Translations under genes and position numbers: made by a program
Assembly: GCA_947259925.1 (NCBI GenBank)
Contig: CAMYOG010000047.1
Location: 21,704-85,703 of the forward strand
DNA from: Thermoanaerobaculia bacterium
GTDB lineage: Bacteria > Acidobacteriota > Thermoanaerobaculia > Multivoradales > JAHEKO01
Direction of reading: 5' to 3'
DNA: 64,000 bases
Shown: positions 25,854 to 26,007 of the stretch, one piece after another
How positions within the stretch are numbered: the stretch's first letter is position 1
Layout of the letters: each line of letters begins with the position of its first letter
Notes under the pieces: model-generated
Databases searched by the model: none
What the model saw: the letters and a program-made list of their open reading frames with translations, nothing else
What the model was told of the DNA's origin: nothing

Positions 25854-26007
25854 GATCCGGTGACAGGATACTCAACTCCCCGCCATGAATTCGGTGTGAA
25901 TTCGGTGACAGGATACTCAACTGCCCCGTCAGCGGGTGCGGGCAGCGGTGAGAGATGCGTTGCTGTTATCGGGCCTTTCGGGAGAGATCGGTATCCTGTC
26001 ACCGGAT
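25854..26007. repeat. MITE-like nested inverted-repeat element, copy B (divergent intergenic region)
   Basis: Left TIR GATCCGGTGACAGGATACTCAACT (25854-25877), second forward copy at 25901-25922 with a local GAATTCGGTG duplication, and right inverted copy GGTATCCTGTCACCGGATC (25989-26007). Same 21-mer as copy A (GAGTATCCTGTCACCGGATCT) but in opposite orientation. Confidence 0.6.

Follow-up and report, generated by a model that had tools for sequence, protein, structure and literature searches.

The 64-kb window (the whole stretch of DNA that was analysed, with a G+C content of 65-70%) carries two divergent genes separated by 175 bp (25853-26027). On the minus strand lies a gene for a 770-aa fusion of an APH kinase with a class-III aminotransferase (23540..25852), and on the plus strand a gene for a 4HBT_2 hotdog thioesterase (26028..26456) that starts at 26028 or 26037, relatives starting at the equivalent of 26037. 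As the initial annotation had recognised, 154 bp of the gap between them are occupied by an inverted-repeat element, copy B. The same composite element is found in the opposite orientation as copy A (14879..15025, no strand assigned) at the end of the class I lysyl-tRNA synthetase gene lysS (15015..16691, minus strand), downstream of which lies a gene of the CMD family (14496..14825, minus strand).

Structure of the two copies

As a whole hairpin-forming element copy B extends over 25853..26009 (no strand assigned), and the strict span from one terminal inverted repeat (TIR) to the other is 25854-26007. Its TIRs consist of GATCCGGTGACAGGATAC at 25854-25871 and the exact reverse complement at 25990-26007, perfect over 18 nt, and the inverted arms reach 29 nt at 86% complementarity (25853-25881 and 25981-26009). 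The left TIR is provided by an outer forward core, F1 (GATCCGGTGACAGGATACTCAACTCCC, 25854..25880, plus strand; 33.2 bits with the core HMM). It is followed by a tandem duplication of TGAATTCGGTG (two units, 25886..25907, plus strand), the second unit of which continues into an inner forward core, F2 (25900..25926, plus strand; 28.5 bits), 93% identical to F1 over 27 nt. Both forward cores had been placed within this duplication; both are indeed present, but only F2 overlaps it, the first duplicate holding just the initial 6 nt of a core. Likewise, the one reverse core described earlier is there as R1 (25982..26009, minus strand; 31.2 bits), which forms the right TIR, but a further, degenerate inner reverse core, r2 (GAGAGATGCGTTGCTGTTATCGG, about 25950..25972, minus strand), pairs with F2 in the fold, and with this fourth core the plan of the element becomes F1 F2 r2 R1. 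The internal CTGCCC...GGGCAG hairpin (25921-25926 and 25940-25945) was also correctly identified, and it forms the apical stem of the long hairpin (25921..25945, no strand assigned).

Copy A has core F at 14879-14904, f' at about 14909-14929, R' at 14953-14979 and R at 14998-15025, and a stutter at its edge, GGCCTGATCCGG-AG-GGCCTGATCCGG (14866..14891, plus strand), continues into core F. Alignment of copy B with the reverse complement of copy A gave 116 matches, against 107 with copy A in the forward direction, in agreement with the earlier reading of B as a second copy with the same TIRs, inverted relative to A. Both copies have the same TIRs and share a further ~100 nt of the interior. In the reversed alignment the shared parts are the outer core, the linker (CTCCCC..CCAT), the inner core and the start of the apex, so that one composite element of ~150 bp is present twice, as A and B, in opposite orientations relative to the flanking transcription. 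The element measures 146-157 bp (146-147 bp for copy A, 154-157 bp for copy B), each arm has two cores of ~26 nt and the invariant part is (T)CCGGTGACAGGATAC.

Neither copy has coding capacity, and the ORFs that cross them are no more than spurious extensions of the flanking genes. EYPVTG-repeat N-termini in the flanking ORFs had been explained as translated cores, and VEYPVTE, VEYPVTGS and DPVTGY / PVTGY were found in the longer six-frame ORFs as this requires; the element accounts for these spurious N-terminal extensions on both sides and for the odd C-terminus of LysRS. Both copies lie within the size range of non-coding MITEs (70-300 bp), and the TIRs of copy B are within the 15-30 bp usual for such elements. 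No direct target-site duplication was visible around A or B at any plausible boundary; such a duplication could have been wiped out by the flank rearrangements that are present at both sites. Within the 64-kb window the 13-mer core GGTGACAGGATAC has seven matches with ≤2 mismatches against 0.71 expected, a 10-fold enrichment above chance that was reached in 0 of 100 shuffles. A profile built from 19 cores detected no more copies in the window beyond A and B, so that the source genome has at least the two copies counted in these 64 kb.

As RNA, copy B folds into one long hairpin (-78.8 kcal/mol, z = -5.98), and the hairpin formed by its DNA has z = -5.43; copy A folds better than B as RNA (-99.4 kcal/mol, z = -11.7). 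Loop and interior vary among family members and the core alone is conserved; the comparison of arms within and between elements, by which compensatory change might be recognised, is confounded by indels. Neither copy matched a family at the gathering score among the Rfam 15 covariance models, only noise being returned at E <= 10. A consensus scan predicted no sigma-70-like promoter in A or B, and an intrinsic terminator scan predicted no terminator in either, there being no T-run. A number of other candidates were considered by inspection and from general knowledge of these features, namely attC sites, retron msr/msd, hammerhead-like motifs, DnaA, CRP and Pho boxes and derivation from 16S rRNA, and for none of them is the defining sequence or spacing present. 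Elsewhere in the window, a c-di-GMP-I riboswitch aptamer (RF01051; 45.3 bits against a gathering score of 35) lies at 44398-44474 on the plus strand, where it closely follows a SpoIIE/GAF phosphatase gene (42493-44295); the ORF called next (44720-45871) runs in the opposite direction and gave no Pfam match.

Flanking genes and element-free orthologous sites

The ATG of the fusion gene at 25852-25850 (minus strand) is backed by a 770-aa database entry (P0001), and the N-terminus of the protein, M-x-RAKAP, aligns in all six loci compared. With this start supported, the left TIR does end 1 nt from the start codon, as had been stated. The gene was further held to have no Shine-Dalgarno (SD) sequence on account of the element, which is incorrect: orthologues without the element lack an SD as well, so that its absence is ancestral and not caused by the insertion.

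The closest matches to the fusion protein have 71-77% identity, LysRS is 80-84% identical to its closest homologues, and the databases contain no closer relative. In the relative GCA_029263375.1 ("Acidobacteriota bacterium isolate OFTM233") lysS and the fusion gene are on one 25-kb contig, with neighbours shared with the window. The element is missing at five orthologous fusion-gene loci and at four orthologous lysS-CMD loci (L017-L022, L157-L161). No core was found at the fusion-gene sites L017, L018/L019 (OFTM233), L020, L021 and L022, where the upstream DNA is ordinary. The order of fusion, hydrolase and radical-SAM genes is kept, at 71-77% protein identity, in L017, L018 and, as far as its contig reaches, L020; L022 retains the radical-SAM neighbour only, and L021 is too short downstream for synteny to be assessed. 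Two of these loci have the divergent thioesterase partner: in L020 the pair is separated by 111 bp of ordinary DNA, and in L021 the thioesterase start is present upstream, with 270 bp of ordinary DNA before the fusion gene. Other neighbours lie upstream in L018/L019, L017 and L022. Comparison with these loci showed that the insertion at site B is lineage-specific. Relatives thus have the same genes with an ordinary promoter region, the outcome that the initial annotation had expected of a recent selfish insertion, and because the element is absent from them it is best regarded as an ordinary selfish insertion.

The relatives have a GATACT hexamer 8-12 nt before the fusion ATG that is missing in the window: GCGATACTTC is conserved at this distance in L018, L020 and L021, with no SD, and the TIR holds the position in the window. 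The TIR itself carries TATCCT at 12 nt before the ATG, close to the position that GATACT has in the relatives. The spacer of 111-270 bp found in relatives is nearly gone at site B, 1 nt being left on one side of the element and about 20 nt on the other, and we infer that the native upstream DNA, including GATACT, was lost together with the insertion or after it. With 1 nt between TIR and ATG, the transcript of the fusion gene must begin inside the element or traverse it, and with the native DNA lost the gene would therefore now be transcribed from within or through the element. Judged from their sequence, the orthologues of the fusion gene without an SD look leaderless, and it could be conjectured that TATCCT in the TIR serves an mRNA with a short leader or none at all, as in relatives.

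Towards the thioesterase gene, the window is homologous to L020 and L021 from the coding region to about 26012, and a -10-like hexamer lies outside the element (TCAAAT at 26016-26021 in the window, CAACAT in relatives). We note that the window has a 9-nt insertion at 26028-26036 (GCGATGAGT in the alignment) relative to L020 and L021, giving an extra in-frame ATG three codons before the conserved start.

At site A, the final codons of lysS (AAG ATC CGG TGA, stop included) come from the TIR of copy A. The tail of LysRS beyond ALE(R/L)F varies in every relative, and in the window it ends ATPPKIR*; copy A was shown by this comparison to have landed in the variable 3' tail of lysS, for which it supplies the stop codon. 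lysS and the CMD gene are separated in relatives by 82 bp (L159/L160) or 175 bp (L161), and no core was found at the orthologous sites L157/L158, L159/L160 and L161. The lysS-CMD spacer seems to be a recurrent landing site. The CMD gene has a conserved -10-like TAGAAT (14835-14840, minus strand) outside the element, and both it and the thioesterase gene appear to retain their own putative -10 hexamers beyond the element ends. The fusion and CMD genes and their orthologues (window 25853-25875, minus strand, and 14826-14845; L018, L020, L021, L159 and L161) have GATACT or TAGAAT 8-12 nt before the ATG, with no SD. Leaderless or very short-leader mRNAs may possibly be widespread in this lineage. 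In OFTM233 an unrelated 4.3-kb insertion occupies the lysS-CMD spacer (L157 9627-13947) and encodes a Peptidase_S74 protein, an FG-GAP protein and an RHH/PemK toxin-antitoxin pair.

Distribution of the repeat family

Among 185,579 species genomes the exact 18-mer occurs in 16 stretches, about the number expected by chance; ~6 of these, or up to nine if the weaker L005/L009 and L016 are counted, have repeat context and look like real family members. All 14 matches to the exact 18-mer in JGI metagenomes are chance matches in coding DNA. In viral contigs the 14-mer gave chance matches only and the paired-core pattern gave none, and blastn of copy B against the PLSDB plasmids gave no match. A full-text literature search with the core sequence returned unrelated primer matches only, and a protein-word search with the in-frame translation of the element, directed at mis-annotated ORFs over other copies, returned no candidate. 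The family with this exact core is rare, and the exact 18-mer documents no transposition burst for it in the 185,579 species genomes or the JGI metagenomes.

The taxon labels of the MAGs that carry the family are those of the record titles. OFTM233 has two clusters within 8 kb (L012, 6650-6870 and 7791-7983), on either side of a carbonic-anhydrase gene (6882-7778, minus strand), and thus carries the family, yet neither site A nor site B is occupied in it. L010 and L004 come from one MAG of 70% G+C; the former is a simple hairpin of 59 nt, and the latter is a solo core that matches the right end of copy B over 28 nt. A hairpin of 62 nt is found in a MAG titled Rhodospirillaceae (L015), the simple hairpins of L010 and L015 having z scores of -5.9 and -6.8, and there is a solo core in a Geminicoccaceae MAG (L016). 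In L014 (Thermoanaerobaculia) 3 nt separate a solo core from the start codon (ATG) of a gene whose N-terminus, judged by eye, is a response-regulator receiver domain, and TATCCT lies 14 nt upstream of this ATG. Copies A and B and the simple units of L010 and L015 all fold as hairpins of inverted dimers, as is characteristic of REP/REPIN elements, and dispersed copies with presence or absence at orthologous sites are as expected for MITEs. Genes beside family members encode a sulfatase, a carbonic anhydrase, a homocysteine methyltransferase/MTHFR fusion, a DegP-like protease and an OmpA-family protein, and there is no functional theme that these neighbours share. The spacing between inverted cores ranges from 23 to 100 nt, and the 16-18-nt core stays perfect while the interior diverges; perfect cores amid diverging interiors could equally reflect selection on a host function.

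Turnover of the element can be followed at the homocysteine-methyltransferase gene of L010, which has a cluster-mate (grouped at 90% identity) on other contigs, the flanks being about 89% identical. L010 has the full hairpin with an extra degenerate core, L166 and L167 have one degenerate forward core only, and the difference consists of two indels of 24 and 34 nt. Solo cores are thus plausibly remnants left after deletion of one hairpin arm.

Several observations were made at the edges of family members and beside related genes. Element edges in several genomes show recurrent short tandem duplications, in which the outermost 6-13 nt of the core are repeated with or without a few flanking bases (window 14866-14891 and 25886-25907; L012 6653-6681 and 6710-6740; L015 about 6521-6545; L016 6323-6346). 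They always terminate inside GGTGACAGG and are not classical target duplications. An orphan CRISPR-like pair with type I-E-like repeats and one 33-nt spacer lies 15 nt from the solo core of the Geminicoccaceae MAG (L016 6219-6307; also L162-L164), with no cas genes within 6 kb. A CRISPR-transposon link was considered on this account and set aside, as the mini-array is an orphan without cas genes. Beside Y1_Tnp genes on plasmids (L168-L170) and on a viral contig (L171) the core described here is absent, and GGGGTCAG-type or other hairpin repeats are found instead. On two Skermanella plasmids, two or three stuttered direct GGGGTCAG units (L169 1383-1420; L170 1340-1420) precede Y1_Tnp (IS200-like) genes, and a PemK/MazE toxin-antitoxin pair adjoins these loci.

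Mobility and relation to known repeats

We are quite confident that copy B is a non-autonomous, non-coding mobile hairpin repeat of the broad MITE/REPIN class rather than a locus-specific regulator or an RNA gene. Size, TIRs, dispersed copies, unrelated neighbours, empty orthologous sites and indel turnover fit this assignment. We propose that a transposase encoded elsewhere in the genome would recognise the core and move the element in trans, and that the composite F1-F2...r2-R1 unit would be what was copied within this genome, since homology between A and B covers most of the element. The about 50 ORFs of the window gave no match to a transposase, an integrase or Y1_Tnp, and tblastn with the RAYT/TIRYT proteins of PMC3733652 found nothing below E = 0.01 in the window or in the loci that were searched, a set from which the pattern-hit loci of viruses and metagenomes had been omitted. 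Scans of the collections (species genomes, viral contigs, metagenomes and plasmids) revealed no cognate IS with ends matching the TIRs.

As to the mobilising enzyme, a DDE-type transposase, as for a classical MITE, is a real possibility that falls a little short of an even chance. The textbook size and TIRs speak for it. Transposon ends may hold several transposase-binding sites, to which the two cores per arm can be likened. The presence of the same core in differently labelled phyla suggests horizontal spread and can be counted on the same side. A DDE-type MITE without a target-site duplication would be unusual, however. Another possibility, which we rate as equally probable, is that the element is a REPIN-like or TIR repeat that moves as single-stranded hairpin DNA through a single-copy HUH tyrosine transposase (RAYT or TIRYT), as has been described for REPtrons and for acidobacterial TIRtrons; this is a variant within the explanation that we prefer. 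The hairpin would then be the entire element and not its ends alone, as is the case here, and a missing target-site duplication at A and B would be in order. The occurrence of family members as singles, head-to-head dimers and clusters is also that of the TIR repeats in PMC3733652, where a distinct Acidobacteria-specific TIRYT group is described; GGTGACAG in the core matches 7/8 positions of GGGGWSAS, the motif of TIRs flanking TIRYT genes, and GGGGACAG in one arm of L010 matches 8/8, a short match. The GGGGTCAG-bearing units ahead of the Y1_Tnp genes of Skermanella plasmids, direct copies that are stuttered and truncated, resemble the edge stutters seen here. However, a degenerate 8-mer with one mismatch would by our estimate be expected by chance in roughly 1/10 cores, and the single core (AGATCCGGTGACAGGATACTCAACTC) has neither a GTAG nor a CGTC tag and at most a non-conserved internal stem of 4 bp, so that it is not a palindrome of the REP kind. 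Moreover, no RAYT or TIRYT gene was found in the window or the loci searched, one retrieved TIRYT relative (L171, on the viral contig) is flanked by unrelated hairpins, and the 18-mer in MAGs of different labelled phyla contrasts with the inheritance of REPINs and RAYTs, which is reported to be mainly vertical. The remaining probability falls to an enzyme of some other kind.

Explanations without mobility, or with a function in the host, were also weighed. The initial annotation took the element to carry, probably, the promoters and/or operators of the fusion and thioesterase genes; as a dedicated module of this pair, its cores would be operators for a transcription factor that controls both genes. 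In its favour are the 154 bp that the element takes up out of the 175 bp between the divergent genes, the much stronger conservation of the 16-18-nt core than of the interior and a core in L014 that likewise stands next to a start codon (3 nt away), and it is true that the fusion transcript must start in or pass through the element. As a dedicated regulatory region, however, the element should not be missing from this gene pair where it recurs in L020 and L021, or from the fusion gene of L017, L018 and L022, all five loci having ordinary upstream DNA. Nor should copy A overlap a stop codon at the 3' end of lysS, or other family members stand beside functionally unrelated genes with inverted cores at such variable spacing. 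It is also difficult to place both promoters in the element when the promoter scan predicts no sigma-70-like site and the presumed native -10 hexamers of the thioesterase gene (the shared TCAAAT) and the CMD gene are outside it, and we consider this function very unlikely. A structured RNA (a small RNA, a terminator or an mRNA stabiliser or processing site), in which the hairpin would be selected and immobile, might account for hairpins that are very stable on either strand and for the position of copy A immediately behind the lysS stop, as would suit a terminator or stabiliser. The silence of Rfam at the gathering score, the absence of a T-run or terminator call, the opposite orientations of A and B relative to flanking transcription, the empty orthologous sites and a loop and interior that are unconserved across the family make it very improbable. 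A third proposal combines mobility with expression: a conserved protein would bind the core, and the element would be a portable expression cassette that spreads between phyla and rewires promoters, its TATCCT end driving short-leader or leaderless mRNAs. It is founded on the core in MAGs labelled Acidobacteriota, Rhodospirillaceae and Geminicoccaceae and on TATCCT 12-14 nt before the ATG at copy B and L014, and we think it unlikely, if conceivable; an outward-facing TATCCT as a -10 in 2 of about 14 element ends is by our estimate not clearly above chance in compact genomes.

As a mobile repeat, the element adds an uncharacterised small repeat to a poorly studied, uncultured lineage of Acidobacteriota. 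It also offers a clean natural case of a conserved gene whose native upstream DNA appears to have given way to a mobile repeat, one that could be used for testing whether such repeats supply promoters to leaderless genes. For annotation it is a caution, as the divergent region should not be taken as a native regulatory region. These consequences are no surprise for bacterial repeats of the MITE/REP type.

Of the known systems, the Correia or NEMIS elements, MITEs of Neisseria, are similarly non-coding and about 100-155 bp long with terminal inverted repeats of about 26 bp; as here, they form strong hairpins on transcription and insert near gene starts or ends, and they can alter the expression of neighbours (PMC3733652 and general knowledge). 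However, Correia elements duplicate a TA target, contain an IHF site and number hundreds per genome, whereas the element here has no target duplication, an unrelated sequence and two cores per arm, any promoter activity of its TIR being conjectural. ERIC/IRU elements, imperfect palindromes of roughly 127 bp in intergenic transcribed regions that are present or absent between relatives, are alike in these respects but have an unrelated sequence and host and no doubled core per arm. The likeness to REPINs, REP sequences and their RAYTs lies in inverted pairs of a short conserved unit with a variable spacer, hairpin formation, intergenic position, lack of target duplication and the occurrence of singles, dimers and clusters, although REP units are tagged palindromes of 20-40 bp, which the core here is not. 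The TIR repeats of TIRtrons are moderately abundant non-REP inverted repeats that occur as singles, dimers and clusters, some of them with GGGGWSAS (PMC3733652). Repeats count as members of TIRtrons when they flank a TIRYT gene, and those at the TIRYT relatives inspected (L168-L171) differ in sequence from ours, but the core here does carry GGTGACAG / GGGGACAG, a short and weak match to that motif, and the host phylum fits.
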